From positions 62,001 to 126,000 of the forward strand of contig JAAOMT010000525.1 of assembly GCA_016748015.1 (NCBI GenBank): a DNA stretch of 64,000 nucleotides, written 5' to 3'. Below the pieces are notes generated by a model. That model ran no database searches and was not told the DNA's origin. It saw only the letters and a program-made list of their open reading frames with translations. Source of the stretch: Geosiphon pyriformis uo1. Its lineage: Eukaryota > Fungi > Glomeromycota. Positions 4,111 through 60,683 of the stretch are shown here, piece by piece (the stretch's first letter is position 1; the number at the start of each line of letters is the position of its first letter). The translations under genes were made by a program, and so were the position numbers.

Positions 4111-4245
4111 TATTTTTTATTATTATTATTTAATGAGTAAAGTCAAAATGCAGTCTAGTACTATACATCACATCAATAATCTAAACTAGATGTGAATCAT
4201 GTATTTGCTACACGTGATCAGCCATTCAAGTCAATCAAGACAACA

Positions 4246-7200: not shown

Positions 7201-8896
7201 CCCAAGCTTCCTTCCAAGGCTCAGGTACTGATTCATGAGTTAGACACAGATTCAAGAGCACAGAAAGCATAGCCAAGACTGAGTTGTTACAGTGTTTCCA
7301 CAATTTATTAGAGATGTCAGAAAGCCCAGCTGCTTTCCCATTAGGCAAATTTAAGACCACAGCAAACAATTTATCAGAACCAATTGGACATATTACACTG
7401 GAAAATGCACCATTAAAAACATAATCCAAAGACTGATATTGGCAAGTCTAATTATCAGAGATATCAGACACTACTCTGCATTTTTTTGTTCAACTTTCCA
7501 TAATTTTATCCACTTTAGACTTAACCAAATCAGGCTCCAAAACCAACTTATCACCTACAACTAAATGATCCAATACTATCTTATGAAAAGGATGCTTCAA
7601 CACACTCCTAATAGTACAATCCTTATCTGATTCAAAACTTTTTATTCTACTGGTAATAGCCTGCTTGATGTGAGATTCTTTAGCATGCTTGAATTCAAGT
7701 AACTTGAAAGAATAGTAAAACTTTCTTGTTCTTGCCAACCCAGAATGAATAGCATTAAAAGTAGAACCTGAAAGAAAAAGAGACTTTACTTCTGCTGCAC
7801 CACTAGAGTCAAGCCTGTCCCATGTATCCAGCAACAAAACAAAATCATCACTTGAGACCAAATGAGAAGCTTTTACCAGCCTGAACACCAACAACTCCAG
7901 TTTATGAAACTTAGAAGACATCTTGGTAAAAACACTGTTATAATCTTTGAACCATTTCTTCTTGAATGTTCCATTAGCTGAAGAAACTATGATTCTACAA
8001 ACAATGTTCCACATTGCATCCAGATCCAAAAACCTCTCAGCTATTACAAATGCACTTGAAAACATAACAGTATTAGCAGCTGTGGTATTTCTAAACTCAC
8101 AACACTTTCTCTCATCAGCATCTTTGATGTCATACTTCCAATAATCCTTGTTCATCTGCTTGTACAGCAATGACAGCTGAATATCCAACAGACTACTCAG
8201 ATCCACAGAAACAGAAACAGCCATGTGATCAGTATTAAAATAATCCACAACACTAACCACATTGTAATTCACCATTGCATTGACCAAATTTGAGGAAACA
8301 AACACATAATCAATTGTCTTAGCAATTCCATGAGAATTGCACCATGTAGGTATCTTGGCAAATATGCTTCCAGCCAAAGAGTTGACCAGACCCAAATTAA
8401 AACACTTCTTGAAACTGGCACATTTGTGAGATTCATTCTCATTAAAGTCACTACCAAAAATAATGAAAAAAGACTTGTTTACAGTCTTTGCAATAAAAAA
8501 ATTGATGTTACCAGTCTGAAAAAACCAAACCACTGAGGAAGCACCAGCATACAGTCCCAAAATTGACACAAAAAGTTTATTCTTAAAAAGCAACTTGACA
8601 CAAAGGATCCGGCTAGGCACTTTAGAAACCTTGTACACATGACAAGCCAAAAAATTGTCCATAATAATAGCTATGCCTAAACTCAGATAACCAGAATCCA
8701 CCCCAAAAGTGAAGACATAGATACCATCAAATCTGTTCACAATCCACAAACGAATCTTATCTTTCAATTTAGTCTCAGTAACAATGAAAATCAAATTGTT
8801 TATTTCCTTATGCCAACAAACTATATCACCCTGCTTTGCAGAATTATTCATTCTTCTGACATTGCACATAGCAATTTTTCAAATTAAATCAATTAT
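4246..8896 (-). pseudogene. LINE ORF2: APE endonuclease, reverse transcriptase, RNase H, Cys-rich C-terminus
   Basis: Endonuclease motifs CNVR, VTETKL, GSDFN, IDYVF, TDH; RT motifs LPNGKAAG, PIALIE, HYLG; RNase H motifs VYTDGS, ELQTI, WIKVKG.SG..N..A; many stops. Confidence 0.9.
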
Positions 8897-9069
8897 TGAG
8901 ATAGAGAAAGAGCCAATGAACCCAAACCAGAACACAAAGAGTCTAATCTTGTTAAAACTGAACCAACTAAAACTTTCAGAGCCATTATCTTTGATTTCAA
9001 ACCACCCACTTTGGTGGTGAGAATCTTTGAACTGCTCAAACTCAGTTCAAGAGCAGTGTTTCCAACCAC

Positions 9070-9920
9070 TGTTACTTATAGAAATATAGGAAATATATTA
9101 GCATAATTATTAGCCAATCAGAAGTAAGCATAGTAAATGTGGAATTCCAGGATTCCTTTCAAGAATTACAGGATTCCAGGAATTTCAGGATTCCCCGATG
9201 AGGAATTGCAGAATTCCAGAATTTCAGAATTCCTCTCAAAGGAATCGCAGGATTCCAGGAATTCCAAGATTCCTGTCATGAAGAATCAAAGAATTGAGGA
9301 ATCTCAATTATGTATATATAGCAGTAGTATTAAAAACAGAAAAGACAGAATCAATACCACAGAATCCTTAGCAAGAAACAAAATCATTAAATAAATAATT
9401 ATTCCATATCTCAATCCACTATCCACTATCAACACTTTATGTTGATAGTCATTGATACTTAACCACACTGGAACAATAGCTCTTGATCACGGCTATTGAC
9501 GGAATACTAATCTGCCAAACCACCTGGGCTTATTTCTTTTCTTTCTTTATTTTTATTTTATTTTATTTTCTTTTGTTGTTTACTAATTGAGTAAAAGGAT
9601 TAAGTGCTAAGTTATTGACATCAAGGATAGCCTGGTAAAAGACCCAAAAATAAGGATAGAATTTTATATATTATCGGATAGCTTACCAAAAGGGCACAAC
9701 TGCCAGACTAAATCCAACCACCATGCTGAGAAAAAAATTGAGAAAACTCTTGGAAAGATACATCTACTATTGACACTATTGAATCTCTGTCTATTATACA
9801 AAAGACTCCATCAAAATCTTCAGATACCATACCTTCAGAACATTATCAACAGAAATAGCTTTTAAGCACCAAATTACGAGTTGTTATTTACTTCAACAGC
9901 AAAAATAATCCTCTGTAACA
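9070..9920 (+). repeat. 5' LTR of element A
   Basis: TGTTAC...GTAACA; matches 39481-40340. Confidence 0.95.
9138..9305. repeat. U3 tandem array of GGAATTCCAGGATTCC-like units in LTR A
   Basis: Repeated ggaattccag/gattcc units just upstream of a TATATATA box (~9313); also present at ~39550-39715. Confidence 0.8.
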
Positions 9921-9922
9921 TT

Positions 9923-9939
9923 TGGTGCTCCCTGTGAGG
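9923..9939 (+). promoter_or_regulatory. Primer-binding site of A (probably elongator tRNA-Met)
   Basis: TGGTGCTCCCTGTGAGG 2 nt after the LTR; its complement CCTCACAGGGAGCACCA resembles eukaryotic elongator tRNA-Met 3' ends. Confidence 0.75.
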
Positions 9940-9982
9940 TATAATCCTACAAAGAACCAGCACTGATAACACCAAACCAAAA

Positions 9983-12900
9983 GTGGCAGAATCAGAAAAT
10001 ATAGGAGCAAACCATTTAGGATTCACAAAATCCTTATTTCAACACTATTGTCAATACTTGGGATTAAACCACAATCATATATCCGCCAAATCAGCCTTCA
10101 ATTTCTATGTTAACAAAAAGATTTTCTCTTTATTAGGAACACCAATAAATACTAAATCAGCAAGAGAAACTTTCTATAAGAAATTAATTCAAAACACCAA
10201 CATACTAACAAATCATAATTTCACATCTATCATCATTGAGATCAACAAAAAAATTGAACATTACACTCAACAAAGATATCCAATTACATATGCTAGTAAA
10301 GGCAAGGGAAAATTACAAACACCAGCAGTAATACCCAGAAAAATACAGCCACCTGCTTGGAAGAAAAACAGAGTTGAATCCCCAAGCAACCCATCCTATC
10401 ACTATACACTTGGAAGTGCCATCAACATATCATCAACAGATGCATTCCCATCAACTGTGACATCAGCATTTGGACAATTCTCATTCCAAAATAGACAAAG
10501 GAAAGCAGAATTGTTAGGACCATATGGCAAATACTTTGAGGGATTTAATTCACGATCATTAACCCCATCAGGACTTCGATCACCACCGCCTCCACCAGAC
10601 TTCGGAATCTCTGATCCATGGGAAGCAGCAGAATCAGAAAAGAAGGAAAAAGAATCAGAGAATCAAGAATTCACTTACCAGCACCCGATCACTAAAAACC
10701 TGGAAGTTAAAATCCCAAATTTTCAAACTCAGTAAAATCCAGATCTAGAAAATTCGGAAATCAAAACTCTGAATTATCAAAGGCAGAACAATCCAAATTC
10801 CAAATTAATTAATTAGCAAAACTTACCTCCAGTAATCGTTATCAATCAACTGCCGATTAATTCCATAGCCAAACTCATACAGCAGCCACTTCAACTACCA
10901 CCCCAACAACCAGTACAACAACAACTGCTTTAACAGCCACCACAACCACCTAACTTAGATCCAATGGCCTACACACCAATTGCAAAACTTGACAACTTTA
11001 CTGGCGAAGAGGATGACACTCAAGTATGGCTGAACAATGTAAAAAAGGCCATCGCAGCCAATGAATGGAATGACGCTCGAGCAATGCAAGCCATTCCCTA
11101 CTTTCTTAAGAATACTGCCAATTCATGGTACCAGAGCCTGATTAATAAACCACAAGATTTTAATGCCTTCAAAGTGGAATTTCTAAGATACTTCAACAAC
11201 AATAACAGTATCAATTGCCTAGTCAATACATTCACCACCATAAAACAAAGAGAAACTAAAGCAGTCACCACTTACCTGGGACATTTCTACCAAAACCTAT
11301 GCCAAATTTAAGCAATTGATGCCAACTATTTCACAGCATCACAGATACTCAATCAGTTTATCCATGGCCTGCGTAGCAGCATCTTGCAACATGTATGTCT
11401 GTTGCATCCAAGTACCCTTCAAAATGCAGTTACATGTGCCAGAGATTTTAAATCTGCTAAGTCAGAGACTAACCACGCCCAAGCCGTTAATCTAGTAATG
11501 AATGGATCATCTGAATTGGATTCCAAATAGGAGAAGTTCAGTGAATCAATTAATAAAAAATTGGAAGGATACTTAGTTGACAATTATGCCATTTATCAGC
11601 CTCCACAATGATACAATAATCAAGGAAACTCTAATCATGCCCAAAATCAGCCACATCTATTTTTATCGACCAATCAACAGTGGCAACAAGAAACGCGTAC
11701 CTGCTACTATTGTGGTAAACAAAAACACCTCCAAATTGACTGTCACCAGTGTTTAAATAACCAATAATTAGGAAAGCAATATTGAAATCCCAATCACCAG
11801 TTCCAAACTCCGAATCAGTATCCAAATCAAAACCAACCCGCTTACCTACCAGTAATGCAGTCATCCATCTATCAGTCTCTGGTGTACCAAGCTCCAATCT
11901 ATCAACCACAGCCACATGTGATTTATCAACAACCGCAGTCACAAATAATCTATCAACCCCAACAAATCCAAATACCATCCCAAAACTTACCACCCAATGG
12001 AACCCAAAGACCGAGAATGACTTAACAGAGCTAGAAATCAGCAATGATAGTCCATCAACTGATCCCCAGTTCTTCACAGCAATCATCTGGATTACACCAG
12101 CGGAATTCAGATACCAGTCAAGCCCAAAACCTGAATTCCCAGAACTATTTAAGCCTTCTGGTCACCCCAGAAGACGCCTTAACCAATAACCCAGCATTCG
12201 CCCAAAAACAACCACTCATCAGTAATATTCTACCTGCTACCATCACCGAAGACGAGTCCTTGGCTGCTATTTTCTCATTTGAATTCGAGAAAACAGCTGC
12301 AATGCCATTATTTAGTGGAGCTGCTCTTAAAACCAAACCAATTACTGCAATGTACACTGATACCAAAGTCGAGGAACAATCCATCAAATTGATCCTTGAC
12401 AGCAATTCAGCAGGCAGTATCATCACACGGCAACTCATGAAACAATTAAGTCACCGAGTTGATTGAGCTGCCAGCACCAGAATCATCACAGCTGATGGAG
12501 CAACCAAAACTCTAATCAGTGAAATTGACGACTTCCCTTTCGAAGTCAATGACATCATGACTCCCATTAAAGTTCTAGTGATGGAAGCCACTCAATACCA
12601 AGCTCTCGTTGGTAATGACTGGCTATTCAAAGTCAACGCAATGTTAGACTGGAACACCCAGGAACTCCAGTTAACATATCAGGGCCAACACATATGTGTA
12701 CCAGCCATGTGTGGCCACTTTAAGATTCCTCCAAAAGAGAAATTATTGATCGAACTGGAGGAGAAGAAAGAAAAACCTACCTGGGAAGCCTACCAAGTGT
12801 CGTGGGCTGATGAAGAGCATAACAAACTGCCACCAATACTCCCCTGGGATGACAACGACAATGGAAAAGAGAAACAAAAAGAAAAACTTACCTGGGAAAC

Positions 12901-13297
12901 CAATGACTTGACCTGGACTAACAACAACGAGAGCAAACTAACTTCAAGCTGAGAATGGGGAGAAAACAAAGAAAAAAAAGGAAAAGGGAAAGAAAGGGAG
13001 GAAGAAAACACTCAAGCCAACAACACTTATATCCAATATACCTATGGTCAGTAACAACCATCGACTTATTGCTGATTCAAACTGATATGCATTGATTGTG
13101 GCAAGAAATTGTTGTCAATAGGTGCATGCTGTGGCAACAATGAAGAATATCAGATGACAACCAAGTTTTATTACCACGCATGCCATATCAAACATTTTGG
13201 AAGACCAAAACAAATGGGAAAATGGGATAATATGCCATATATAGCCTATGAAGAAACTCTTCTGGATGAAGGAATGTGGAACGACATCCCAGGACGT
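9983..13297 (+). pseudogene. Element A gag (N-terminal extension, capsid, CCHC), protease and start of Cys-rich domain
   Basis: All ORF pieces share one frame; MAYTPIAKLDNFTGEE capsid start at 10964, CYYCGKQKH zinc knuckle, ILDS.SA protease motif. Confidence 0.9.
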
Positions 13298-14286
13298 TGT
13301 TACCAAACAAAATTAGAGATATTATTTAGCATAAAATTATCTTATAATTCCTATCATTAATTAGCATATATTATTATTTTAAATTATCACTTATTACATT
13401 AGCAAAAATGTCCGAAATTATCATTTAATTAATAACCCAATTTGTACACAACACAAATGTAATCTAATTGCGATGATCAATCATGTAATACCCGAACTAT
13501 GTAACATTCAAAAGTTTGCTGAAATTTGTAGAAATTTGTAGAAATTTACCAAAATAATTGATAGTTCACCGAAATATCTAATAGTTCACAGAAATAACTT
13601 GTAGTTTGCCGAAATGTATCTTTAGTTCAGTGAAATTGTAGAAAATAGCAAAGTTCAAGTTCATAGAATAGTGTTATGACAAGTTGTATAAAAGAAGAGC
13701 TTTTTTCTTCGAGAAAATGTATCTTACTTAAGATTTATCACTTAAAACCATTCCTACGTACACAAAAAGAAATAAATATCAAATAATTTAAAAAACCAAA
13801 TTCTTTAATTATTGCACTTGGAAAATCCCCAAAACCCAACTAATGTTTTAAAATTAATTAGCTACCAATTTCAATAAACTGTTAGTAACTCCAAGCCTGG
13901 ATCGAAAACATTTCTCTTGACAGAATTTTATTTCTTTCACATTTCTTTTATTTTTCTTTTATTTTTCTTATTACAATCATTAGGGTAGCCTACAGACAAA
14001 ATTCCTGTAGAAGAGTTGACTTTCACAGCAAAGTAACTACACATTTTTAGTGAGCTTTCAGATAAGCAATTCCTGGGAAAGAGTTGATATTTACTACAAT
14101 GTAACTACATTAAGTAACTGCCATAGAATTGGCCATTCCACTTATAAGCCCAGCAGTTCAAATTATAGGAGATAATTTGAAGATAAATTCAGTTACTGAA
14201 GGTCCAACTACTTCCTGGAAACGTGAATTCACAACAAATCAACATTAACAACATTCAAGAAAAAAGACCAAAAACCTCTGGTAACA
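13298..14286 (+). repeat. 5' LTR of element B
   Basis: TGTTACCA...TGGTAACA; U3 repeats of (a/g)tttgccgaaat type; TATAAAA near 13687. Confidence 0.95.
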
Positions 14287-14288
14287 TT

Positions 14289-14305
14289 TGGTGCTCTCTC
14301 ATGGA
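14289..14305 (+). promoter_or_regulatory. Primer-binding site of B (tRNA not identified)
   Basis: TGGTGCTCTCTCATGGA 2 nt after the LTR. Confidence 0.75.
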
Positions 14306-14331
14306 AATAACACAGCAACAACAAATTCAAA

Positions 14332-17300
14332 GTGGCGACCACACCAGATGCAACAACTCTAGAGTATTACCAGTCAATTTACACCCACTGCAAGCAAAGA
14401 TTCAACATTCCAGACGGAATTGAAGTTGTTAAGAAATCAGTATATTAATATATTGAAAACTGCATCAACAATTATTTTTTTGGAAATTACAATATCTCAG
14501 AAGTTAGAAGCAATCTTTACAATAATTTAGCACATTATTCACAGTTGGGAACTGAAGATTTTAACAGTGAAACACTTGCCACTTACTTTCACGAACTTAA
14601 TTTTAACATTATCAAATACTGTGAAGAAACATATCCAGTACAGTCTCAATACTCTATTAATTTTAAATTGGAAACAGAAACAAGCAACAAAGGCAAAAAC
14701 AAATTGAAGCAATACTCAAAAATCACCCCAAATACTCCAACACTACCAAAAACGACTGCCAAACATTTACAAACACCTGAACAAAGAACCAGTTCAAAAC
14801 TTCCACTTACTATCACACCTTTTCCAGCTTCACTTGCACAAGCACAAACACCTAATTCACCCTTGAATTGATTTGCAAGACCAGAAGATTTTACATCACT
14901 CAGAAGTCCCATCAGACAACAAGAACCCCTTCAAACTAGTTCCAATCTTCTTGACTTTCTAGCTGAAAATCAAAGTGAACACTCTAAGACAGCAGCGAAC
15001 AAAAAAAACAACTCTGAAATATCTAAAGAAGAATCAATAGACAATGAAAATGAAGAAGACAAAATGACAACATATATCGCAAAAATCCCGGAATTTAATG
15101 AAGAAGACATTGAGACCAGTCTCCAAGAATGGCTCGACCAAGTTACTAAAGCTGGAGATGCAAATGAATGGAATGCTGCCAGAATATTAAGAACAATTCC
15201 CTACTTTCTCAAAGGAACAGCAGGAGAATGGTTTGAAAACTTGGTTGCTCTATTCAATGATTGGAATGCTTTTAAAGCAGCCTTCCTTGAACAGTTCACC
15301 GACAATAATACCTCCATCACCCTTTGTAATTGTTTTCAAAATATCAAACAAGAACCCTCCGAATCTGTTATGACTTATATTGGGAAATTCAACAAACTTC
15401 TCAGATGAATTTGCCAACTCGAAACAAACAATTATTATTCCAATGCTCAAATCTTGGATCAATTTATCACTGGTTTAAAAGATAAACTAATTAAAAAGAT
15501 TCGCCCACATGCGCCAGAAGATTTAAACTCTGCCATACAGCATGCAAAAAGATATGAAATGACCATGGAAGAGACCAATCACACAAAACTTGTAAATTTG
15601 GCAATTGCAGAAACCAGCTCAGCAGCTGAGAAAAAAATTGACCAACTCACAAAGAAGGTTGAAAACTATTTTACCAAGCAACAACAACAGCAACCCCAAA
15701 GATATTAACCACCTCAAAGATATTAACCACCCCAAAAATGAAATCAAAATAATTTTGCACCACTTTCCAATAACCAGTCTCAGAATTGCCATTACTGTGG
15801 AATCTCTGGCCACTGGAAAAGAGATTGCAGGAAGCTACAACGAGACCAACAAAATAAAAATAATTAACGTTATCTTCCATCACAGCAATCTTATTATCAA
15901 CTACCACCACTAGCTTACTATCCACCAAGGCCCCAATACCAAAATAACTATTATCAGCCCGCCCCACAGCCAATCCAACAGCAATACCAACAACCACCCA
16001 CACAACATTATCAAGTATCTGCTCGAAGACTGAGTACACAAAGTCAATTCACACCACAAAACCGATACCAAGTAAACAACAATAGAATCAGTTCGAACAA
16101 CCAATTGGTTCCTCGAAATTCTACTCAACCAAGACCCAACCATTATCACACTCAACCCAATTATTTAACAATGTCAGAAGAACAGGATTTTCACCATACT
16201 GCACCTTCGGAAGGTAGAACTGCAGCACAACAACAAAACCCTTCTCATAACCACACCACTATTCCATCAGCCCAAATTGCTGAAAACGCCAATCTCTTTG
16301 ATATCTTTCCTTTCGAGTTCAAAGCCAATGAATCACCATTTCTACTCAGCAATGCAGCCGCTAATGAACAAAAAGCAAGCACTGCTATGTACACTGAAGC
16401 AGAAGTTGAAGGAAAGACAATTTGCTTGATCCTAGACAGTGGATCCGCTGGAAGCATTATCACCTACCAGTTAATACAACAGTTAAAGAAAAATGTCGAC
16501 CGATCAGCTCAAACAGTAATCATTACTGCTGATGGCATGAAAAAGACTTCAGTAGGAGAAATTGAGAATTTTCTATTCACTCTTGATGGAATTACCATTC
16601 CAGTCAAAGTTCTTGTAATGGATGCACCCCAATACCAAGCTCTCTTGGGAAATGATTGGCTTCAAAAAGCCAATGCTAATCTGAATTGGGAAACACAAGA
16701 GTTAACAATCTCCTACCAAGAACAACACGCCCAGGTACCTGCCACTTATGGTACATTCAACAAATGCTCTGAAAAAGCCCCAGTTTTTGAATTCGAACTG
16801 GAAGAGGAAAAACCCTTCATTGAAACATTCATGGCTCTTGGATCAACATCCAACTGGGCCAATGAAACGGAACAAAAACATTTTACCTCACACTCTGAAC
16901 CCGAAACCTCTGGATGGAATATCCCTTACTCAAAACCCGAACCAAAGAAACAACGTCCCTATATTCTCCTTAAATGTAAAGACTGCCACAAAAAACTATT
17001 GTCAATGGAAGCCTGTATTTTACCTAAAGAAGAATATAAAAATCATACTTGTTATTACTGCAAGGCTTACCACAGAGAACAATGGGGCCATCTAATAAAA
17101 AGAAGTAGAAAATGGGACAACACCCCTTGTTTGACTTGTGGAGATATACTACCAGAAGAATGCAATTGAATTGATATAGCAATGAGAGAAGGAGTCTGTG
17201 ATCAAACCTGCCAATATGCTTTATCAATTTCAGAAAAAATCAAAAAAGGAACACCTTTTAATGTAGCATACAACAGTGCTCTCAACAAACTTTATCACTA

Positions 17301-19967
17301 CCCCTATGATACTGAAATGATTTTCAATTTAGCAATGGCATTAATTAATAGAGCTACCAAAGAAGATGTTCGTCAAATGAAGGAAGCAGAATACATTGAA
17401 TACACCATGGAATTAGCTAGATTTGATTACAAAAATGAAGTAAAAGTCTACTATCAAATTGCAAGTCACACCTACCCAATCCAAGAAGCTCAAATTCAAC
17501 AATTAGAGCAAATGAACATTAGGCTATGTGAAAAATGCATTATGTCTTGTAATGAACAGTGGTGTCCTGAATGCTATGCTCTTAGCATCCTCTTGCCCAG
17601 TGAAAGTGATGAGAACGAAATTGAATTTGGAAAACCTGAAGCCACAAAAGAAATTGAAACAACACCTACTTATCTTATCAAAAATCAGCCTGCTTTACAA
17701 CTTAAATACTTCAACAACAATAGACAAGAAATAAAACCTGAAAAAACACATGAAATTGATGCTGGATATAACTTAAGATATCCAGATAAGGATACTCTTG
17801 TTTTCTAACCCAAATCTCTCACAAAAATCAACCTAAAAATTGCACTCAAAATCCTGCTAGAAACAATGATTCAAATCGCCTCCCAGTCCTCTCTGGCAAG
17901 CAAAGGAATAAATGTTAGAGGAGGAATAATCGATGCTGGATATACTGAAAACATTACAGTAATGCTTCAAAACGAAACTGACAAATCATTCAAGATCGAA
18001 CATGCTGAAAAAATTGCCCAAGCTATTTATCTACCCCTAATCAACATTTTGGGTTTGCAACTAGTCAATCAAAGAGAACAATTAGGAAAAAGTGATAGAG
18101 GAACCCAAGGTTTTGGTTCAACTGGACAATTCACAGTTCCAATTAATATAGCTCTTAATACACAGAACGAATCCCACCAGATTCTCAGACTTCCACAACC
18201 AATTACCATCTCACCCTTTGGAGAACATCCGGAAATCTACACCTGCCCAAAGCCAACAACCACACAACAAATTTTTGAGTTCAATGAACAAGTCTGCTTG
18301 AAACATAATATTTTAATTCCAAACATTTATATTCCAGAAGGAACAAAAAAAGTCCGAGTTACTTTTTACAACCCCAATAATTACCCCATAATTTTATTAA
18401 ATAATTTAGAAATTGGAGTTATTCACAGTAATATATTTCAACAAAAATTATCCCAAACAGTTCCCGATTTCTCTGAAATTATTGGACATTCACTACCAAA
18501 AATCAACCCAAACTTCAGCTCTGAAAATTACCATGTTGTTATAGAAAAACTGTCTCGAATCAACATGGAACAACTTGAACCACAACAACAGACCCAGCTC
18601 AAAGAGCTAATTGCAGAATTTGCCAATATCTTTGCTGAAAACAACAATGACTTAGGAAGAACCGATTTGGTCCAACACCAAATTTATACAGAAGATGCCA
18701 AACCAAGAAGACAACAAGCATATCGAGTTGCTCCAGAAAGCCACCAATTCATCCAAGAAGAAATACAACGAATGCTTAACAATGGGCTCATCCAACCCTC
18801 CATGAGTCCTTGGGCTTTACCTGTAGTGCTAGTTAAAAAGAAAAATGGAAAGATCTGATTTTGTGTTGACTATTGACAACTCAATAGTGTTACAATTGGA
18901 GATGTCTATTCTCTTCCCCAAATTAATGACATGTTAGATGCCCTTGAAAAATCCAAATACTTTTCAACACTAGATTTAGAAAGCGATTACTGGCAAGTTG
19001 CTATGGATTCCATAGATCACTCCAAAACAGCATTTATTACCCAAGACGGAAATTACGAGTTCAATATAATGCTTTTCGGATTATGCAATACACCAACAAC
19101 ATTTCAGAGATTAATAGATGTTGTGTACCAAGGACTTTTTAGAAGTCAGTAGTCGTTTATCTTGACAATACTGATGTTTATTCTCCATTGTTCAAATTAC
19201 ACTTAAAACACCTGTGAAAAGTTTTTCAATGATTACAAAAAGCAAGACTAAAACTTAACATCGAAAAATGCTACTTTGGAAAAACAAGTTTGGCCTTCCT
19301 TGGGCATATTGTTAATGAAGATGGAATCAAACCAGACCCTGGGAAAATTAGCATTGTCAAAAACTTCAAAACTCCTTGAAACACTACAGAACTAAGAGAA
19401 TTCATAGGATTAGCATCCTACTATCAGAAGTTTATCAAAGAATTCTCAGAAATTGCAAAACCCCTCAACCAGCTCACCACCAAAAACATTGAATACAAAT
19501 GGACTACCGAACACCAAAAAGCTTTTGAAATTCTCAAGGAAAAACTGACAACAGCTCCAATCCTCGCCTACCCAGATTTCAGTAACTGATTTCGACTAGC
19601 TACAGATGCTTTGTATACTGCTTTTGGTGCCATCTTATCACAACTAGATAACAATGGAAATGAGCAAGTAATTGCTTATGCTAGCAGAACATTAAAACCA
19701 GCTGAGAAAAACTATCCTGCCACAGAACTAGAAACAGCAGCCATAATTTGGGCCCTACATCACTTCAACCTTTATCTCAGGCCTAAAGAATTTGATATTA
19801 TTACTGATAATATTGGACTCAAATAGTTACAAAACAAAAACACTCAGCTGAATACCAAACAAACCAAATGGACAGAATTTTTAGCAAACTATTAATACAT
19901 AGTACATCACAAACCAGAAAAACTCCACACCAATATTGATTGTTTCTCCAGAATGAGACAAGATTAG
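14332..19967 (+). pseudogene. Element B gag-PR-Cys-rich-dUTPase-RT-RNase H polyprotein
   Basis: CHYCGISGHWKRDC, ILDSGSAGS, DAGY/RGTQGFGSTG, YLDN (decayed YLDD), ELETAAI; one frameshift near 19140 and many CAA/CGA/TGG-derived stops. Confidence 0.93.
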
Positions 19968-20018
19968 AAAACACAAAAACCAACACTCAACTTAACCAAT
20001 TAAAACAACCAACAAACA

Positions 20019-21404
20019 ATGAATTTGGAAAACTACAACAATCTCAAACAATATTTGGAAACATTAACAATCCCAACAGATTGGTTTCCAGATAAAAAAC
20101 ATCGACTACAACAACAAGCCAAACAATATTTTCTACACAACAACATTATTTATCATCGAAATTTCAAAAACCCAAACAAACCACTCAGATTAATACAAAA
20201 ACAGGAAAAAATGACCATCTTATACAACATGCACTCAGATCCTTCATTAGCACACTTTGGAAAAGATAGCACCACCCAAAGAACACTAGAATACTACTTT
20301 TGGCCTCGAATGAGGAAAGACATTCACAAATATGTTGAGTTTTGTAATAATTGTTAAAGAAAAGAAAAAATACGCCCTATTGAACCATTAAATCTAATCA
20401 AAGTTGGACAACCCTTTGACCAAGTTGGTATCGATTTAGTCGGACCACTATCTATCACCACTCAAGGAAACCGTTATATTGCAGTAGCTGTAGACTATCT
20501 TACTAAATGGCCTGAAGCCAGAGCCATTCAATGAGCAGATACAAAATCAATAGCAAATTTCATCTATGAAGACATCATTTGTAAACACGGATGTCCAATT
20601 GAACTTTTATCTGATCAGGGGACACACTTTGTGAACAACCTGATACAAGAAATTTGCGAACAATTCAATGTCAAAAAACCTTTGTCTTTGCCCTACTATC
20701 CACAAACAAATGGACTTGTGGAACATTTTAACAAAACATTGTGTGAGTCATTAGCCAAAGTCTTAACTGATTTTGAGCAAGAGTGGGATATCTTTATTCC
20801 ATCAGTGTTGCTAGCATACAGAACACTAAAACAAGATACCACAAAACACACACCATTTGATTTAACTTATGGAAGAACAGCAACATTACCAATTAATTTT
20901 ACAGTGGAAACATACCTAGTACAACCAATCAATGAAAACAATTTCCAAGAAACGCTTCAGTGAAGAGCCTACACTCTGCTTAGCACATTGGAAGAAAAAC
21001 AATGAATAGCAGCCACCCATATTGAACACTCCCAAGCTTGACAAAAAGAACAGCATAATAACAAATTGCCTCCAGTCACCAATGAATTTAAAACCGGAAA
21101 CAAAGTTCTCTTACACAGAACTAAAGCTGAAAAACAATGGAGTGGAAAATTTGAAAATAAATGAGATGGACCATTCTTTATCCATAAAGTCCTAGGCAAT
21201 GGATCATACAAGCTAAGACTTGATGACAAAATTCTAACAAAAGTTGCACATGGAGATTGTTTGAAACACTATCATTCCAGAAACAATCCTGAACCATTAA
21301 TTCTACAAATTGGTAGACATTCCTCTTTAGTCAATCCCGAAGATATTTCCCAAAACTTAGAACCAATAGTTGTCATTGAACAACCTTCCAACCTGAACAC
21401 TTAA
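20019..21404 (+). pseudogene. Element B integrase (separate ORF)
   Basis: Own ATG; H..H/C..C zinc motif, GIDLVGP, SDQG, NGLVE, GPF module; no chromodomain seen. Confidence 0.92.
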
Positions 21405-21510
21405 TTTAATTTTACTAGTTATTCTCTTATAATTTAGAAACAATCAAAACAAAAATAACATAAAAACCCATACACCAAAAATAATTTTCTTTTATTTCAA
21501 ATTTCTTATA

Positions 21511-22230
21511 ATGACTATTCCTCAAAACATTCAACAATTATCCCAAAAACTAATGTTAGCTTTAAAAACAATACCCAAATTATCCATTACTGTTAGTGGA
21601 AACCACATTAATTATACCCAAACAGAAGTAGTTATAAATTTAGCCCCAAATTTACAAAAATATCATCCATATAAGAAGAACACAAGAAGTTATTCTGGAA
21701 TTCATCTGCCAGAACTTTTAAAGCTTGCTTTAAGAGAAAACCTAATGCTCACTCCAATTAGTATTCCACCAAATGCTACAATTCAACAAAGACTTCAACT
21801 GTGTTTCAAGAAGGAAAACACTGAATATTTTCCAATCTATAGATATTTCAACATTAGAAAAACACTCTATAAACGAAAACTGGAACTTACAACAGCAAAC
21901 CTCACAAAAGAAGCCATTCAGAAACAACTCCACAATGAATTTAAGACAACAGCTGGATCAACAAACAGTTGCTACAGGCTCAGAGCTGCTTTTAGACTTT
22001 ATGACCTATTCTATACCTGTGAAAACATACTACAAAACCCAATTTTTCAATCTTTGAAGATTCAATACATTAGAAAGCTCACAGAACTGAAATTTCAACA
22101 ATTTTCAGACCAAATTTCTTCAATAATTTTGGATTATTATCTGGAAATGACAGACAGTACTTGGACTTCGACAGAGCTCAGTCTTGAGGAGGAGGTTATG
22201 TTACCAGATGAAATTAGAGATATTATTTAA
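21511..22230 (+). CDS. Element B ORF3, 239 aa, unknown function
   Basis: Uninterrupted ORF between IN and the 3' LTR, reading through the PPT; homologous to the ORF3s of A and C. Confidence 0.85.
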   Translation: MTIPQNIQQLSQKLMLALKTIPKLSITVSGNHINYTQTEVVINLAPNLQKYHPYKKNTRSYSGIHLPELLKLALRENLMLTPISIPPNATIQQRLQLCFKKENTEYFPIYRYFNIRKTLYKRKLELTTANLTKEAIQKQLHNEFKTTAGSTNSCYRLRAAFRLYDLFYTCENILQNPIFQSLKIQYIRKLTELKFQQFSDQISSIILDYYLEMTDSTWTSTELSLEEEVMLPDEIRDII

Positions 22231-23177
22231 CATGAAATTATCTTATAATTCCTATTATTAATTAGCATATATTATCATTTTAAATTATCACTTATTACAT
22301 TAGCAAAAATGTCTGAAATTATTATTTAATTAATAACCCAAATTGTACACAACACAAATGTAATCTAATTGCGATGATCAATCATGCAATACCCGAACTA
22401 TGTAACATTCAAAAGTTTGCCGAAATTTGTAGAAATTTGCCGAAATAATTGATAGTTTACCGAAATATCTAATAGTTCATAGAAATAACTTGTAGTTCAC
22501 CAAAATGTATTTTTAGTTTAGTGAAATTGTAGAAAATAGCAAAGTTCAAGTTCATAGAATAGTGTTATAACAAGTTGTATAAAAGAAGAGCTTTTTTCTT
22601 CAAGAAAATGTATCTTACTTTAGATTTATCACTTAAAACCATTCCTATGTACACAAAAAAAAATAAATATCAAATAATTTAAAAAACCAAATTCTTTAAT
22701 TATTGTACTTGGAAAATCCCCAAAACTCAACTAATGTTTTGAAATTGATTAGCTACCAATTTCAATAAACTGTTAGTGACTCCAAGCCTGGATCAAAAAT
22801 ATTTCCTTTAACAGAATTTTATTTCTTTCACATTTCTTTTATTTTTCTTTTATTTTTCTTATTACAATCATTAGGATAGCCTACAGACGAGATTCCTGTA
22901 GAAGAGTTGACTTTTACAGCAAAGTAACTACATATTTTTAGTGAGCTTCCAGACAAGTAATTCCTGGGAAAGAGTTGACATTTACTACAATGTAACTATA
23001 TAAAGTAACTAGTATGGAATTGGCCATTCCACTTATAAGCCCAGCAGTTCAAATTATAAGAGATAATTTGAAGATAAATTCAGTTACTGGAGGTCTAACT
23101 ACTTTCCGGAAATGTGAATTCACAACAAATCAACATTAACAACATTCGAGAAAAAAGACCAAAAACCTCTGGTAACA
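22199..23177 (+). repeat. 3' LTR of element B
   Basis: Follows the PPT gaggaggagg; matches the 5' LTR. Confidence 0.95.
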
Positions 23178-23738
23178 ATGTGGAGGAATGTGCGACATAT
23201 CGTGTCAATACATAATTTTAATAAGTGACTGGATAAGAAAAAGAACCCCAATAGAAGCAGCCTGGAAAAGAGCCGTACAGTGACTGGACAGTTGTCCACA
23301 TAACGATGACAAAATTTGGCGAATGGCACTCGCCAAAATCGAAGGGGCATTGTCTAAAGAAATAAAAACAATCAAAGACAACCCCCCAGAATCTTTAGAG
23401 CTTAACTGGGATGCAAAACCCATTATAAATCTTCTGGATTCAGAACAATTCCATGAACACTACCAAGAATTAGCACCCACAAGGGAAGAACAAGAACAAT
23501 GGTTAGAGCAGTTGAATGCTTGACTATGTCAACACTATCTAATTCCCTGTGACTTTCAGTATTGTAATGAGTGTAACCTCATTTACAATCCACTACCACA
23601 TATAATTTATACAATCCCTGAAGAGGAAAAACCAATCAGCAGATGTGCATCAGAATCGGAATCAATTTTTTATCCTGATTCAAACTCCAACAATGATGAT
23701 GACAAAAACACCAGTTCCAGCTCCATTTAATATGGCAA
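23178..23738 (+). pseudogene. Element A polyprotein, continuation of the Cys-rich domain
   Basis: YQELAPTREEQEQ…LC.H.LIPCDFQYCNEC, homologous to C 28013-28510. Confidence 0.88.
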
Positions 23739-24833
23739 TGTCATCTAAGTAGAAAAACCAATCCAAAGTTATAAAAAAACATGACCAAAATGTAACATAA
23801 TACAGAATAATACACAATAACATTGGATAACACATTATAACATTGGATAACATGTTATAACACAGGATAACACAGAATAGCACGCAATAACATAGAATAA
23901 TGTGTTATAACACAGAATAACACAGAATAACATGTAATAACGTCAGATAACATATTATAACATAGGATAACTAGCGATAACGTAGAAAAACGAAGCAATA
24001 ACAGAAACAACAAAGCAATAGCTAGCAATAGTAAGACAATTGAAAGCAATCCTGTAAAACCAAAAGAATGTATAAAAGCAAGTAGTTGTAGAAGTGAGAA
24101 AAGACAGAGAAGAAAAAATAGATATGAACCTCTAGACCAGAAATTAAAATATCCATACCCCTTCATCCTTTATTATCTTCCCTATTTCATTTCCTAAAAT
24201 AAATCAATTATTAAAAGAAATCAGAATCATGAATTCATGTTCTCGAACTTCGTGAAATTTACGTGAATTAACCCTTGTCTCATACCTCTGTTCTAGAACA
24301 GAAGCTCTTAGCATAACTGCCTCGAACCTATTAACAATTTGAACTAATTGCTCTTGATCACAGCAATTGACAATACTAATTTATCTTTTCTCTTTTTTCT
24401 TTTCTTTTCTTTTTCTTTTTCTTTCTTTTTCTGTCTTAATTTTTTTGTGGAGTGGCAACATAGTAAAATCGACTGTCTGGAAATAGACTTCATAATAGCC
24501 TGGTAAAAGAGGGAAGCTTCCCCTAAGTTTTGGATATTAACATTATCTTGTTAGCTTACTAGAAGGGTGAAAAGACAATGCCAGACCCTAATGACTGCAC
24601 TCGTTAGCTCGGAGAAGAAAGCTCACATTTACGAAAAAACATTGCAATCGACGAAAGACAAACTCTGTGCCTTATAACCAAAGAACTCAACAGATAAAAT
24701 TCACATCCAGAAATAGACCTTCAGAGACTGATAATCAAGACTAAGCCAACAGAATTACACGAAAGACGCATCATCAATAATTGAGAGCACCAAATGTTAC
24801 TATTTCCCATACCCACCAAGTTTACCCGTAACA
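23739..24833 (+). repeat. 5' LTR of element C
   Basis: TG...GTAACA; matches 32893-33967. Confidence 0.95.
23790..23985. repeat. U3 tandem array of ATAAC(A/G)-core units in LTR C
   Basis: ataacac/ataacat/ataacg repeated many times; the array is shorter in the 3' LTR (~32945-33120). Confidence 0.85.
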
Positions 24834-24835
24834 TT

Positions 24836-24852
24836 TGGTGCTCCCTGTGAGG
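24836..24852 (+). promoter_or_regulatory. Primer-binding site of C (identical to A)
   Basis: TGGTGCTCCCTGTGAGG. Confidence 0.8.
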
Positions 24853-24895
24853 TTATAAATCCACAGAGACAGAGCACCCCCAAAAATACATAAAA

Positions 24896-27800
24896 GTGGT
24901 GACTATTAGAACAATAGGAAAAGACCACTCCTCATACGAAAAAACACTATTTCAATACTTTCAAAAAAACTTAGGAATACCAGCAGGAACCACTTACACA
25001 GAAAGTGATTTTTGTAACTATATTAATGCAAAAATCAACTGCTTGTTAGACTGCGCAACTGATACAGGAAAACTTGGAGAACAAATCTATCAAAGTTTAC
25101 TAGGGTATTCAACAGCCACAACTACCCGAGCAATCGCTGAAACTCTGCGCATAATCGATACAGACATTAAATATTACATGGCACAATGATTCCCTCAAGT
25201 ACAACAACCAGTGGAATCCGATCCTGAGGAATACAAAAATGAATCCAACAAATCTGTAACTGCCTAAGCCAAGTCCACAGTCAACAAGAAACCAAGGATC
25301 CTCTCCCCAACAACTCCATCATACCATTAGACACCCTAAAGTAGAATTGTATTCAACCCACCTCCGGAAACTCAGTCAGAAACACCACGAACTCCTGGAA
25401 ATCCACATCCTTGGAATCAACACAGTTGGACCAAATCACTAGGAGAATACAGATCGCTGTTTGGAAATCTTAATCCAGCAGCTGGTCAAACAGAAAGAAA
25501 CCCATCAACTTGGAAACAGCTACCAGCACAAAACCTAGCAGAATCAGCATCTCCTCTGATGGAAAAAACAGCTATCTTACAACTTATTGGTTCAAGTGAC
25601 AAAGGAAAGCAACCAGCATTAGCACCCAGAGAACACTTGAATACACGGACACCAATCCTTTTAAACATAACCAGTAACACCCCACCCATTAATCAGATCA
25701 TGGCTTACCAAGATATCACTAAATTGGAAAAATTCTCTGGTGAAAAAGATAACGCATATTCTTGGATCGTGGATGCTGAGAAAGCAATTACCGCTAATGG
25801 TTGGAACGACAACCACACAGTTCAGGCACTGCCATTCTTTCTGACCAAAACCGCCAATTCGTGGTACCAGAGCCTGGCAGAGAAGCCTATTTCCTTTACC
25901 GAGTTTAAACTCGCATTTCTGCAATACTTCTGTGACCCCAATATGTTAATCCGATTGCAGAATCAATTCAGCATAATTAAACAAAAAGATCATGAAGCAG
26001 TAACTACTTATCTCGGACGATTCAATCAAATCCTGCATCAAATATTAGCTATCGAAAGGAACTACTACACCATGGTGCAAGTTCTTAATCAATTCATTAA
26101 AGGATTGTGGAGTAGTATTCTAAGATTCATAAGACCCTGCCATCTGACCAGTTTACAAGACGCCGTCACTCTCACTTGCAATTTTGAGTCTGCAGAACAA
26201 GAAGCGAACCATACCCAAACCATTAATTTAGCCATTAATGGAACTTCTGACATTGACACAAAAATAACCCAATTGAGTGAGAAACTAACTCAGAAAATTG
26301 AGGGATTCTTAGCCAGAACTACAGAAACTTACCAACCACTCCAACGGAGAGAAAATAACAACAACAGCAGATACCCACAGCAACAGAACTGTCAGCAACA
26401 GCAACAATCTTGGAGATCTGATCTCTGCAACTGCTACTACTGCCAGAAACCTGGACACATTGTCCGTGATTGCAGAAGGAAAATCATGGACCAAAATCAA
26501 GAAAACCCATACCAGCAATCCAGATATCAGCAAACCATGGTATCCCAATATTCTATACCTTAGAATCAACCACCCCTATATGCACAACAGGTCCTGTATA
26601 CTCAACCACCACCCCAGAATTATTATCAACCACCACCAATGACACAAGCAATCTCTTACTATTAAACTTCCCCTTACAGCCTGTCCAAACCTCGAGCTAT
26701 AGACTATAATCAGGGATGGAGGAATTCCAACAACAATCAGGTGCAAACCAACAGTAAATCATCTCGACCAATCCCTCGCGGTCCTGTCCAATCTCAACCA
26801 ACACCAACTGGATACCCGAATCAAGCTTCCTATCTCAGTCTTATGGAAGACTAGGGTTTTGATAAATCTATACCTGTGGAAAAGGAGGATATAAAACAAA
26901 TCTCCCAACCTTCCAAGCAAACAAAAAGCAATATTCCACTAGCCACTATTACCAAAGACACCACCCTAGCCGCCATATTTCTTTTTGATATCAATAATTT
27001 AAACACACATAGCTTTTTTAGTGGAGCAGCCATCAATCAGGGTAAACCAATAACGGCTCTATACACTGATGCCAGAGTCGGAGGAATAGACATTAAATTA
27101 ATCCTGGATAGCGGATCAGCCAGTAGCATAATTACAAAACAGCTCATAGACCAACTAGGTCGCCGAGTAAACCATGCTGCTACCGCCTGGATCATTACAG
27201 CAGATGGGAACACAAAAACCCTGATAGAAGAAATTGACAACTTCCCCTTTGAGATTAATGGAATCCAAATCTCTACCAAAGTACTCATTATGGAAGCTAC
27301 TCAATATCAAGCTCTAGTAGGAAATGACTGGTTGTCAAAAGCCAACACTATTCTCGACTGGAACACCTAAGAACTTCAACTCATGTTCAATAGACAACAT
27401 GCCCGAGTCCCAGCTACGTGCAGACACTTTAAAAACCAACATACCAAGGAACCCCTTATTGAATTCGAAGACACATCAATGCCACCAACTATCGAGACCT
27501 ATCAGGTTTCATGGGCAGATAATTATTGAACTGAACTACCCCCACCACCAACCTGGAAAGAAAAAGGAAAAGGCAGAGCCGAAGAAGAACCCCAATCATC
27601 ATCACTAGGATACGTAACCTCGGACCAAAGAAACTTATTTTACCAACCCCCAAGACTAATATGTGTTGATTGTGGAAAAAAACTATCCACTATGGGCGCA
27701 TGTATTGAGGACAACAAAGAATGGCCCACCACCACTAAATACTATTGCAGGCCTTGTTTACTGGAAAGATTTGGATGACCAAAATGACAAGGCAAGTGGA

Positions 27801-30685
27801 ACCACATGCCATGCCTTGCATGTGGTAAAATCTTACCAAATGAAGGACTCTGGAATGATGTGCTGGGCAGAGGAGAAACATGCAATGAGGCTTGTCAATA
27901 CATCATATTAATTAACAATTGGGTACGAAAGAAAACTCCCATCGAGGACGCTTAGAAATGAGCACTTAACAGACTAGACGGTTATCTACACGATAACCAT
28001 GAAATCTGGAGAATGACAAGCGCCAAGGCCGAAGGCGCCATGCCCAAAAAAATACGAGAAATTAAGGACAACCCTTGGATGCCTGAATATACTGGACCCA
28101 ACTACCCTGAGGATGATTTCTTCACAGATAACCCAGATGTATTTCAGAACCAATATCAGGAATTGGCCCCAACTCACAAGGAACAGGAGCAAAGATTGGC
28201 TGATTTGAATACCAAACTATGCGATCACTGTTTGATCTTTTGTCACTTCCAGTACTGCGATGAATGTGATCTCATGTTCAATCCATCTCCAAGAATACTG
28301 TTTCCAATTACCGAACTACCTGAACCCAAAAAAGAGGTATTGATTACTGAGGACATGTTATTTCAAGATCCAACTGAGAATACTGAAACAGAACAGTATC
28401 TTGCATATCCCGACCTATCCAAAGAACTAGAGCTAAAATGGTACAGTGACAATAAGGAAGGAATCTGTCCTGAAAGAGTGCATAACACTGATGCCGGTTT
28501 CGACTTATGATACCCTAGACAATCATTCATTATTATAGTCCCATATTCTCTCGTAAAAATAGATCTTAAAATAGCATTAGAAATTCTTATTAGTACAATG
28601 GTACAAGTTGCCTCTCAATCTAGTTTAGCCAAGAAAAAAATTGACATAAAAGAAAGAATTATTGATGCCAGTTACATGGAAAACATCATCGTGATGCTAC
28701 AGAACAATTTGGACAGACTCTACAAAATAGAATCACAAGAAAAAATTGCCCAAGCTATCTTCTTACCCTTAGTCAAAATACCCCAATTAACTCTGGTAAC
28801 AACCCAAGAAGAGTTAAGCCTCACTGCCCGAGGAATCAACGGGTTTGGATCAAGTGGAAGAGGAAACGTACCAGTTAATTTTATAAAGGAAGACAGTGAC
28901 CAGGTAGAATTTATCCACACTGACACTGTCATCTCCATTTCCCCATACCAACAATACATCCTCAAGGTGAATTGAAAAATCTAAGATCAAGTCTTATTAT
29001 TCAAAGCCAGTTCCGAAATCTGTTTCCTAGCCAATGTTGCTAATCTATACCTACCAGCCAAAGCCCATAAACACTTCAAAATCTCCATCCACAACCTGAC
29101 AGAAGATGTTATTGAAATTCCTGAAGGAACCCTCATCAGTTTCATATCCGTAGATAGTCAGAATCCTGAAAAACCCCAGTTCATTCCAGATTTCACACAA
29201 TTATTTTTATTCTGTAACATTACCTTACAAGTATAGAATTTGCCAAAAGAAAGTTACTTGTTCATACCAGAAGAGATCAATAAATTGAATTTAGGAAATT
29301 TAAGTACCCTGTAACAAATGCAACTCAAAGTCCTTCTGAATCAGTATGCCGATGTCTTTGCCAGTGAAAATAAGTTCAGACGCACTGACATTGTGAAGCA
29401 TCAAATTGATACAGGAGATGCTTAACCAATTAAGCAACGAACTTACCGCATACCTCCATCTGGCGATAACCTAATTAAGCAAGAAGTGCAACAGATGCTT
29501 AATAACAGCCTAATCAAAGAATCGTTAAGCTCTTGGTCCTCGCCAGTAGTTTTGGTCACCAAAAAAAACAGAAAAGTGCGATTCTGCGTAGATTATCAAA
29601 AACTAAATAGTATTATGCGAGGAGATAGTTATCTCACTCCCCTTATCCAGGAAATTCTGGACAATCTAGGGAAAAAAAAATGGTTCTCGTCATTAGATTT
29701 AGCAAGTGGTTACTGGCAAGTTGAAATAAACCCCAAAGACAAAAAAAAAACAGTGTTTACCACTCGAGATGGAAACTTCGAGTTTAACATAATGCCTTTT
29801 GGACTTTGTAATACTCCTGCCATGTTTCAACACCTGATGGATGTAGTATACAAAGGAATTCTTTGGAAATCAGTAGTAGTCTACTTAGACAACACAAACA
29901 TGTTCTCTGAAACATTCGAAAACCATCTGCTTTATCTGCAACAAGTCTTCAAACGCCTTTGTAGTACTGGATTGAAACTCAATCCCGAGAAGTGCTTTTT
30001 TGGAAAAACTGAGTTAAAATTCCTAGGACATGTAATCAGCAAGAACGGAGTTAAATCCAATCCAAATAAAATACAAAAAGTCAATAATTTTCTAGCCCCA
30101 ATCAACCTTAGAGAATTACGAGAATTTCTAGGATTAGCAGGATATTATCGTCGATTTGTCAAAGGTTTCTTGAACATTGCAAAACCACTCCATCAATTGT
30201 TGTCCAAATATGTACCATACTTGTAGAAGGAAGATCAACAGAAAGCATTTGACTATCTCAAGCAGTGATTGATCACATCCCCAATCCTGATTTACCCAGA
30301 TTTCACTAAACGATTTATTGTTGCTACAGACGCCTCAAAAAATGCTCTAGGAGCAGTTTTATCACAGATAGAACTGGACAATAGAGAACACCCAGTTGTC
30401 TATGCTAGTCGCAGCACTAGTCCAGCAGAAAAAAATTACAGCACAACAGATCTGGAATGTCTCGCCATTTATTGGACCATACAGACTTGGAAACATTACC
30501 TCAGTCAACCATTTGACCTATATACCGATCACAAAGGACTTATTTGGTTACTCAACAATCCACAACTAGAAGGAAAATATGCAAGATGGAGTACTTATCT
30601 GTAACAATTCCCACTTAAAGTCTATTACAAGGAAGGATCCAAGAACACCAATGCCGACAGTTTGTTAAGAATGCCACAAACCTAA
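24896..30685 (+). pseudogene. Element C gag-PR-Cys-rich-dUTPase-RT-RNase H polyprotein, single frame
   Basis: ORF pieces at 24896, 25559, 26876, 28013, 28598, 29486 and 30269 are all in the same frame; CYYCQKPGHIVRDC, ILDSGSA, DAGFDL, LDLASGYWQ, TDAS. Confidence 0.94.
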
Positions 30686-30695
30686 TCCCAGACCC

Positions 30696-32063: not shown

Positions 32064-32143
32064 ACAATGGGCAGCAAATTAAATTGGAGAATTCAAATAT
32101 ATATAGCATCCGAAAAGCAGCAAGAAACAATAGAAATTTCAAC

Positions 32144-32878: not shown

Positions 32879-32892
32879 AAAAAGAGGGATAA

Positions 32893-37336: not shown

Positions 37337-37399
37337 AAACATTTCAACCCAAAAATATAACAAAACCAGAACAATACCAATGGAAAAATACAACAAAAG

Positions 37400-39467: not shown

Positions 39468-39480
39468 AAGAAAGGAATAA

Positions 39481-54332: not shown

Positions 54333-54599
54333 TTCCAAACAAAATGTCCTTGACAGTGGAAGATGAATTAATTGTTAATTAATGGCTCCGATTTTTTTTA
54401 TTTTATTTATACCTTAAATTAGATGCGACTCACGCGTTGTCTACATGTGGCTAGCCACCAGACTATTCTGAATTGAATGTATAAAAGAAAACCCATTCTG
54501 AAAAAACATTTTGTGCATAAAAGCAATTAACATACAACTATTTCTAATTATCTCATTCATCCATTTGGCACTTGACTTGATATTAAGACTCTGAAGCAA

Positions 54600-60681: not shown

Positions 60682-60683
60682 TT

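Follow-up and report, generated by a model that had tools for sequence, protein, structure and literature searches.

In textbook long terminal repeat (LTR) retroelements, integrase (IN) is fused to Pol, and this fusion both sets the dose of the enzyme and brings it into the particle. The locus described here raises the question of how IN is made where that fusion is missing. Our window, a stretch of 64,000 nucleotides (nt) of the Geosiphon pyriformis genome (contig JAAOMT010000525.1, positions 62,001 to 126,000, forward strand), holds four decayed Ty3/Gypsy-type copies, named A, B, C and E, in which, according to the original prediction, the polyprotein stops after RNase H (RH) and IN begins at an ATG of its own. 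From these copies and their relatives, Gag-protease-reverse transcriptase (RT)-RH, IN and a small third protein appear as three separate open reading frames (ORFs), termed ORF1 to ORF3 below.

Reading frames at the RNase H-integrase boundary

The RH stops and IN ATGs proposed for the four copies were reproduced base for base. In B, a TAG (19965-67) is followed by a 51-nt spacer and an in-frame ATG at 20019; in C, a TAA (30683-85) by 10 nt and an ATG at 30696 in frame +1; in A, a TAA (37334-36) by 63 nt and an in-frame ATG at 37400; and in E, a TAA (63636-38) by 29 nt and an ATG at 63668 in frame +2, which bears out both the predicted spacer lengths and the displaced frames of C and E. All four copies share the aligned RH end N-x-(D/N)-x-(L/F)-x-x-M-x-x-x-stop, and the homologous IN start M-x4-Y-xx-L-xx-Y likewise aligns in all four. 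It had further been argued that random stops would not line up in four divergent families. The stops do line up, but the families are not independent: their junctions are 56-65% identical in nucleotides over 200 nt on each side, and because A, B, C and E share descent, they read as one inherited arrangement rather than four events. With many stops in the copies and a common ancestry behind them, the window alone is suggestive, not conclusive; the argument from four families is weaker than stated, and the proof of a split IN rests with intact relatives.

The B junction was also compared with DNA contigs from three runs of one sample, with figures taken from the first 40 of 172 difference rows. 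Most contig copies, among the difference rows listed, differ from B at 20000-20001, so the second in-frame stop within the B spacer is probably specific to this copy. At least 13 contigs agree with B up to 19966 and then carry another spacer, the first letter of which makes a TAA at the same place. Single-contig deletion joints at the B junction had no GT-AG ends in the three runs, which, being DNA, are uninformative on splicing.

Metagenomic relatives were retrieved by IN alignment, and all locus counts given here refer to the best 80 of at least 561 confirmed stretches; in such a retrieval a fused close relative would score as high as a split one. Both the RH end and the IN start are contained in 49 of the 80 loci. 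Intact copies with RH fused to IN, the finding that would speak against a separate cistron, were searched for among these and none was seen: the frame is open from RH to IN in 0 of 49, and the two share a frame in only 14. After de-duplication, RH and an IN of at least 400 amino acids (aa) are both uninterrupted by stops, each on its side of the junction stop, in 27 of 38 loci, and in several loci ORF1 runs intact to its stop over 900-1600 aa. Because none of the loci is fused and so many are free of stops on both sides, the RH-IN split is a lineage-wide property of intact elements and not a product of decay.

A protein search with residues 1-200 of the B integrase against targets of 253-807 aa returned 69 matches, of which 49 begin at the aligned IN Met; a further 14 are truncated or have a later start, and 6 carry additional residues at the N-terminus. 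Since this length filter favours stand-alone proteins, longer proteins were searched too, yielding five matches, two of them close and both fungal gene models (P0070, P0071). Together with the locus counts, these matches support the claim that a separate IN cistron is a trait of the lineage. The named IN matches belong to Rhizophagus clarus, Entrophospora, Cetraspora and Geosiphon (one Geosiphon gene model is closely similar to element C), and Funneliformis is named among the ORF3 matches; all are arbuscular-mycorrhizal-type fungi, which makes a Glomeromycotina fungus the likely host. The viral contig collection contained no IN relatives. In a quick tree of IN from the relatives, which has many open forks and in which L054 is misplaced through a frameshift, B and C of the window group with L011.

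ORF1 itself varies among the relatives. In L020, L029, L041, L043, L058 and L060 it extends up to ~300 aa beyond RH as an acidic, Cys/His-containing tail, for which Pfam gave no match in the three scanned (L020, L041, L060). Extra breaks between Gag and protease (PR) or between PR and RT occur at L004:1975-2197, L022:2884-2999 and L037:3292-3341, and such relatives may have three or four cistrons.

Junction anatomy and the route to integrase

The junction set comprises 54 cases, namely the 4 window copies and 50 loci remaining after the removal of 4 near-duplicates. It omits L030, L038 and L042, in which the true ORF1 end is masked by an earlier stop; where the contig does not include RH (8 loci), ORF1 was taken to end with the longest open frame upstream. 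Spacers range from -20 to +365 nt and use all three frames (15/21/18). Ten junctions lie at +2 nt or overlap, 37 fall at 3-100 nt and 7 are longer, placing 47 of the 54 within 100 nt, with direct overlaps of stop and start as ATGA in L031 and L068 and as TAATG in L034. Across the whole tree the IN start stays tied to the RH stop. A purine at -3, the initiation-context rule, marks 60 of 68 IN starts; internal Mets have it in 222 of 361 cases (p = 1e-5). G occupies +4 in 56 of 68, and the second residue is always D, E or N (71 of 71), a Met-D/E/N N-terminus being the NatB substrate pattern. The IN ATG sits in a good, initiation-type context.

Among spacers of at least 10 nt, 37 of 44 are free of AUG; those of up to 170 nt contain 6 AUGs vs 29 expected from dinucleotide shuffles, and a control region downstream of ORF3 showed no depletion (127 seen vs 126 expected). 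Spacers without the hairpin described below fold weakly (median -3.6 kcal/100 nt), and the overall composition is 39% A and 13% G. AG is missing from 9 of 44 spacers (B and E among them) and YAG from 15 of 44, and no conserved GT or AG flanks the RH-IN junction. Within RH, synonymous and third positions vary freely to the 3' end, and one Ser codon ~290 nt upstream is AGY in 34 of 34, reading YAG in 56%. In a subclade other than that of the hairpin (L003, L004, L007-L010, L012), YGGA words recur in the spacer and a TTGATTT-like motif precedes the IN ATG by 5-25 nt.

Downstream of IN, a helical ORF3 of 120-270 aa is present in 28 of the 35 loci long enough to show it. Those of B and C match the family hidden Markov model (HMM), and A has a probable copy, judged by position. 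The 7 loci without ORF3 include one helix-turn-helix (HTH) ORF locus and one NUDIX ORF locus, where an HTH protein or a NUDIX hydrolase replaces it (L004:6546-6944, L057:1945-2889). The predicted structure is all helical, with a predicted local distance difference test (pLDDT) score of 94. Foldseek found no PDB or BFVD match for the model (best VIA Z 5.1), an absence that is no proof of a new fold; there was no usable Atlas match, and a Pfam scan placed no family in more than 1 of 30 members. ORF3 represents an unnamed protein family. A TATA box lies at most 120 nt upstream of the ATG in 23 of 29 ORF3s (8.3 expected) vs 16 of 58 INs (14.6 expected), and in an interval picked after the positions had been seen, boxes precede 18 of 29 ORF3s and 14 of 60 INs. 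Of these 18 ORF3 boxes, seven are in non-coding DNA; the other 11 fall within the tail of IN and may owe something to codon use. Among the window copies, the box is present in C and A and absent from B. The comparison acts as an internal control, with a signal seen for ORF3 and not for IN, and ORF3 is likely to be expressed from its own TATA-driven short transcript.

Because the IN start tracks the RH stop, the spacers are mostly short, open and AUG-poor, and neither an acceptor nor a TATA box is shared, these data are best fitted by termination-reinitiation after RH on a genome-length RNA, to which we assign a probability of roughly 0.55. The 40S subunit would be retained after termination at the RH stop; at overlaps of -1 to -20 nt it would restart on the spot, and elsewhere it would scan the short, mostly unstructured, AUG-poor spacer to the IN AUG. 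IN output would then be low relative to Gag-Pol, no protease cut would be needed at the IN N-terminus, and IN would have to join the particle non-covalently. Subclades may differ in their route of expression.

Directly before the IN ATG, 26 of the 80 loci carry a 37-nt RNA structure on the sense strand (e.g., L041:4464-4500), and a scan with the hairpin model gave significant scores at no other place in the loci; 21 of the 26 are training rows, and 4 of the other 5 are near-duplicates. It consists of an outer stem of 3-4 bp, a purine-rich bulge of 11-12 nt, a stem of 6-8 bp and a CANNGUGA loop. In an alignment of 21 copies, 97.6% of cells are paired and compensatory changes affect 7 of 10 pairs, and none of 500 shuffles and no slid control came close on these pairing and compensation measures. 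The 3' edge lies 0-13 nt ahead of the AUG in 24 of 25 cases and the 5' edge 18-39 nt past the upstream stop in 17 of 21. In the quick IN tree, 23 of 25 hairpin rows fall within one 26-row clade; 3 of its 26 members have no hairpin, one of them (L045) with an upstream poly-A run that may be an assembly artefact. The window contains no hairpin by pattern or model (B and C lack it), Rfam gave no match at the motif in 14 motif-bearing loci with E up to 5, and viral and prokaryote contigs gave 0 exact matches to the pattern. Its place suggests restart control or protein binding, and it is likely a regulator of restart or a protein-binding operator in one subclade.

Several points weigh against reinitiation. 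After long ORFs it usually requires a tether or a helper protein (PMC10275272, PMC5972666), and a shared nucleotide tether looked for in the RH 3' end was not seen. Where the hairpin occurs, so close to the AUG, it would have to melt. The loss of AUG is non-specific, CAT (28 vs 43) and GTA (13 vs 27) being low as well, and in the non-motif spacers alone CAT is depleted more than ATG (CAT 3 vs 10.8), so that AUG scarcity lends only moderate support. Simple scanning cannot get past the 6 and 7 AUGs present in two spacers that measure 192 and 365 nt, and internal promoters without a TATA box could still serve IN.

The alternative that survives best, which we regard as possible yet clearly the less probable course, is that IN comes from its own subgenomic mRNA, made either from an internal promoter that lacks a TATA box and lies in the spacer or at the end of RH, or by splicing from the LTR leader. 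A strong start context and AUG-poor spacers would suit a short 5' leader equally well, an internal promoter is probably already in use for ORF3, and the long AUG-rich spacers of L032 and L040 would be easier to account for. The invariant AGY codon in RH could even conceal an acceptor, but that site is YAG in just 56% and lies far upstream, 9 of 44 spacers have no AG and 15 no YAG, no TATA excess precedes IN (14 of 60, where ORF3 reaches 18 of 29 over that interval), and start codons that overlap the stop are left unexplained.

Internal ribosome entry at the spacer, with upstream translation irrelevant and the entry site either A-rich and unstructured or formed by the hairpin, seems unlikely to us. 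It would suit the A-rich, G-poor spacers and the conserved, covarying structure that adjoins the AUG in 26 loci, but 10 of the 54 junctions have virtually no spacer, that of C measures 10 nt, and the hairpin occurs mostly in one clade, 3 members of which are without it.

We consider it improbable to a further degree that an intron takes out the stop and spacer and leaves an ordinary RH-IN fusion in the mRNA. The sole support comes from five fungal gene models in which RH is joined to IN (P0066-P0068, P0070, P0071), and we read these as ab initio predicted introns over the stop; the join points of P0066, P0067, P0070 and P0071 all differ and lose conserved RH-end and/or IN-start residues. The IN Met is moreover invariant and in an initiation context, the junction lacks conserved GT/AG flanks, and the spacer of B has no G. 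Finally, that the stops are decay, or that IN is reached through readthrough or frameshifting, might be suggested by the heavily mutated window copies and the in-frame junctions of B and A, but is refuted on sequence as long as no intact fused copy of the same clade is found (0 of 49 here): in 27 of 38 loci nothing but the junction stop interrupts either side, each of the three frames and of the three stop codons is represented, and the open stretch ahead of the IN Met in its frame never exceeds 42 codons.

The nest of elements in the window

The window contains a nest of decayed LTR elements in which A, a single element, is broken up by B, C and one solo LTR, and each of these four insertions is flanked by a 4-bp duplication that C>T changes have blurred. 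LTR hallmarks are all found: TG...CA ends (the TG decayed at two LTR starts), a primer-binding site (PBS), a polypurine tract (PPT) and the 4-bp target duplication. The domain order Gag-PR-RT-RH-IN is present too, with a Ty3-type capsid (CA), RNase H and an H2C2/DDE/GPY-F integrase. On B, Pfam places Gag, CCHC, protease, dUTPase, RT and RNase H before the stop and H2C2, rve and SH3/GPY-F past it, and among solved structures the IN profile matches Ty3-G Gag-Pol best (E 4e-50). The elements are Ty3/Gypsy-type LTR retrotransposons of a non-canonical kind, placed by LTR features and domains, the tree covering the IN of relatives alone; because IN lies inside Pol in canonical members and 0 of 49 loci are fused here, we file them as a Gypsy-type variant. 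All four window copies are dead (CpG observed/expected 0.24-0.77), with 6-18 internal stops per ORF as counted for B and C and LTR pair identities of 92-94% (B 94%, C 92%). Before deamination, the target duplications read N-C-G-N in 3 of 4 insertions (13294-13297, 9066-9069, 33968-33971), hinting at a CpG-centred target choice.

Features of all these elements lie on the plus strand. Element B (13298-23177) opens with a 5' LTR (13298-14286, TG...CA), followed by TT and a PBS-like TGGTGC at 14289, and has 4-bp flanks ACGT/ATGT. Its decayed ORF1 (15064-19967) encodes Gag (CA, CCHC), protease, a Cys-rich insert, dUTPase, RT and RNase H up to the terminal TAG; it has a single frameshift near 19100, and the frame extends upstream of 15064 too. 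The A/C-rich spacer (19968-20018) is without G, AUG or AG and folds at 0 kcal/mol. ORF2 (20019-21404; 461 codons, 6 internal stops) comprises an N-terminal extension, H2C2, DDE and SH3/GPY-F, and the open ORF3 (21511-22230; 239 aa, E 3e-24 to the family HMM) crosses the PPT (22186-22195) and reaches into the 3' LTR (22199-23177).

In element C (23739-33967, flanks GCAA/GCGA), the 5' LTR (23739-24833) is followed by a PBS-like TGGTGC, and the decayed ORF1 (25700-30685, Gag-PR-dUTPase-RT-RH) keeps a single frame to its TAA. The spacer (30686-30695), a decayed ORF2 (30696-32063) and a decayed ORF3 (32144-32878), with its TATA box 46 nt upstream in non-coding DNA, precede the 3' LTR (32893-33967).

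Element A extends between LTRs at 9070-9920 and 39481-40340, with whole-element flanks CCAC/CTGC. Its ORF1 survives in pieces (9923-13297, 23178-23738, 33968-36115, 37127-37336), the last break being a solo LTR related to that of B (36116-37126, flanks TCAG/TTAG) within RNase H. The TAA and spacer (37334-37399, with one out-of-frame AUG) lead to a frameshifted, decayed ORF2 (37400-38783) and the probable, decayed ORF3 (38838-39500), which was placed by position and eye without a family-HMM match and has a TATA box 41 nt upstream. Element E lies apart from the nest and has lost dUTPase-RT, its post-protease region being joined directly to late RNase H: ORF1 (60602-63638) consists of Gag-PR, an internal deletion near 63375 and the last ~80 RNase H codons with the TAA, and the spacer and IN start (63639-64000) are cut off at the window end.

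A Cys-rich insert with several CxxC pairs lies between protease and dUTPase at 16900-17500, 27650-28300 and 13060-13290; a Pfam scan of that of B gave no match. Positions 1-1342 hold the 3' end of another B-family copy (ORF3 and LTR). A decayed long interspersed element (LINE)-like element on the minus strand (4100-9069 and 40341-42170), with endonuclease-, RT- and RNase H-like pieces recognised by eye, was the insertion target of A, and more LINE-like fragments lie near 56400-58200 and 59180-59700. A host gene split by introns, which we take to resemble sphingosine-1-phosphate lyase, occupies 52245-54374 on the minus strand, and an HD-domain-like gene lies near 49100-50500. At 42447-43184, two 100% identical copies stand 438 nt apart in AT-rich DNA, as either a tandem duplication or an assembly artefact.

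Comparison with known systems

With Ty3/Gypsy elements (Metaviridae, e.g., yeast Ty3) the present ones share TG...CA LTRs, PBS, PPT, the 4-bp duplication and the order Gag-PR-RT-RH-IN, and like PosPlaTy3-5 they have a dUTPase between PR and RT (PMC2864245). In known Ty3/Gypsy layouts IN is part of Pol, whether Gag and Pol share one ORF or have one each (PMC12440569, PMC2864245), whereas here IN is a separate AUG-started ORF outside Pol, followed by a third ORF. A separate IN ORF in an LTR element is undescribed in the literature searched, which includes PMC12440569, PMC11673190, PMC2836005, PMC2864245, PMC10275272, PMC5972666, PMC5911963 and bioRxiv 10.1101/2021.03.30.436303 in their accessible parts, with Repbase, most subscription journals and supplements outside the search. 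Annotation pipelines label these integrases as stand-alone 'transposases' or splice them to RH, and the lineage is consequently mis-described in mycorrhizal fungal genomes.

In Ginger1 and the YPYY-type Gypsy integrases, too, a Gypsy-like IN stands on its own and has an extension N-terminal to H2C2, and Ginger1 uses 4-bp GC-rich targets (PMC2836005), which the N-C-G-N duplications resemble. A Ginger1 DNA transposon is ruled out by direct LTRs and an upstream RT-RH in the window and loci and by the lack of terminal inverted repeats. Troyka elements (Kuafuorterviruses) are LTR elements with the order RT-RH-IN in common, and they have CG...CG ends, 3-bp duplications, mostly a single Gag-Pol with IN, and animal hosts (PMC12440569, PMC11673190); TG...CA ends, 4-bp duplications and a separate IN exclude them here.

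The transactivator TAV of cauliflower mosaic virus (CaMV) is encoded by the last ORF and has its own promoter, and ORF3 is also last, apparently with a promoter of its own. Caulimoviruses are not known to have IN or LTRs. Their RT lineage (Caulimoviridae) is related (PMC12440569), and CaMV with TAV reinitiates downstream of long ORFs, at distances from a few nt up to 700 nt and with no cis signals (PMC5972666). No likeness of ORF3 to TAV was seen in the Pfam and fold searches described above, and ORF3 is absent from 7 of 35 loci. That ORF3 licenses or controls IN reinitiation on a polycistronic RNA, in a caulimovirus-like plan with an operator-like hairpin in one clade, strikes us as a doubtful though conceivable scheme; if true, IN uncoupled from Pol would be a free module, which might ease the way to its loss or exchange.

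As for reinitiation itself, a UAAUG overlap drives it in SART1 and the hypovirus CHV1 (PMC5972666, PMC2699510), mammalian LINE-1 ORF2 follows a 63-nt spacer and SART1 has a downstream RNA structure (PMC5972666, PMC10275272). In these and in the victorivirus HvV190S, a second long ORF likewise begins at or shortly past the first stop. All of them are non-LTR elements or RNA viruses, whereas the present case concerns an LTR element that has integrase as its downstream product and shows much wider variation in junction geometry. A large intact lineage outside the Pol-fusion rule requires another means of IN translation and packaging. Its dozens of natural fungal junctions, which range from overlaps to spacers of 365 nt, form a test set for eukaryotic reinitiation after a very long ORF, and its by-products are the conserved hairpin, a new RNA structure, and the unnamed ORF3 protein family.

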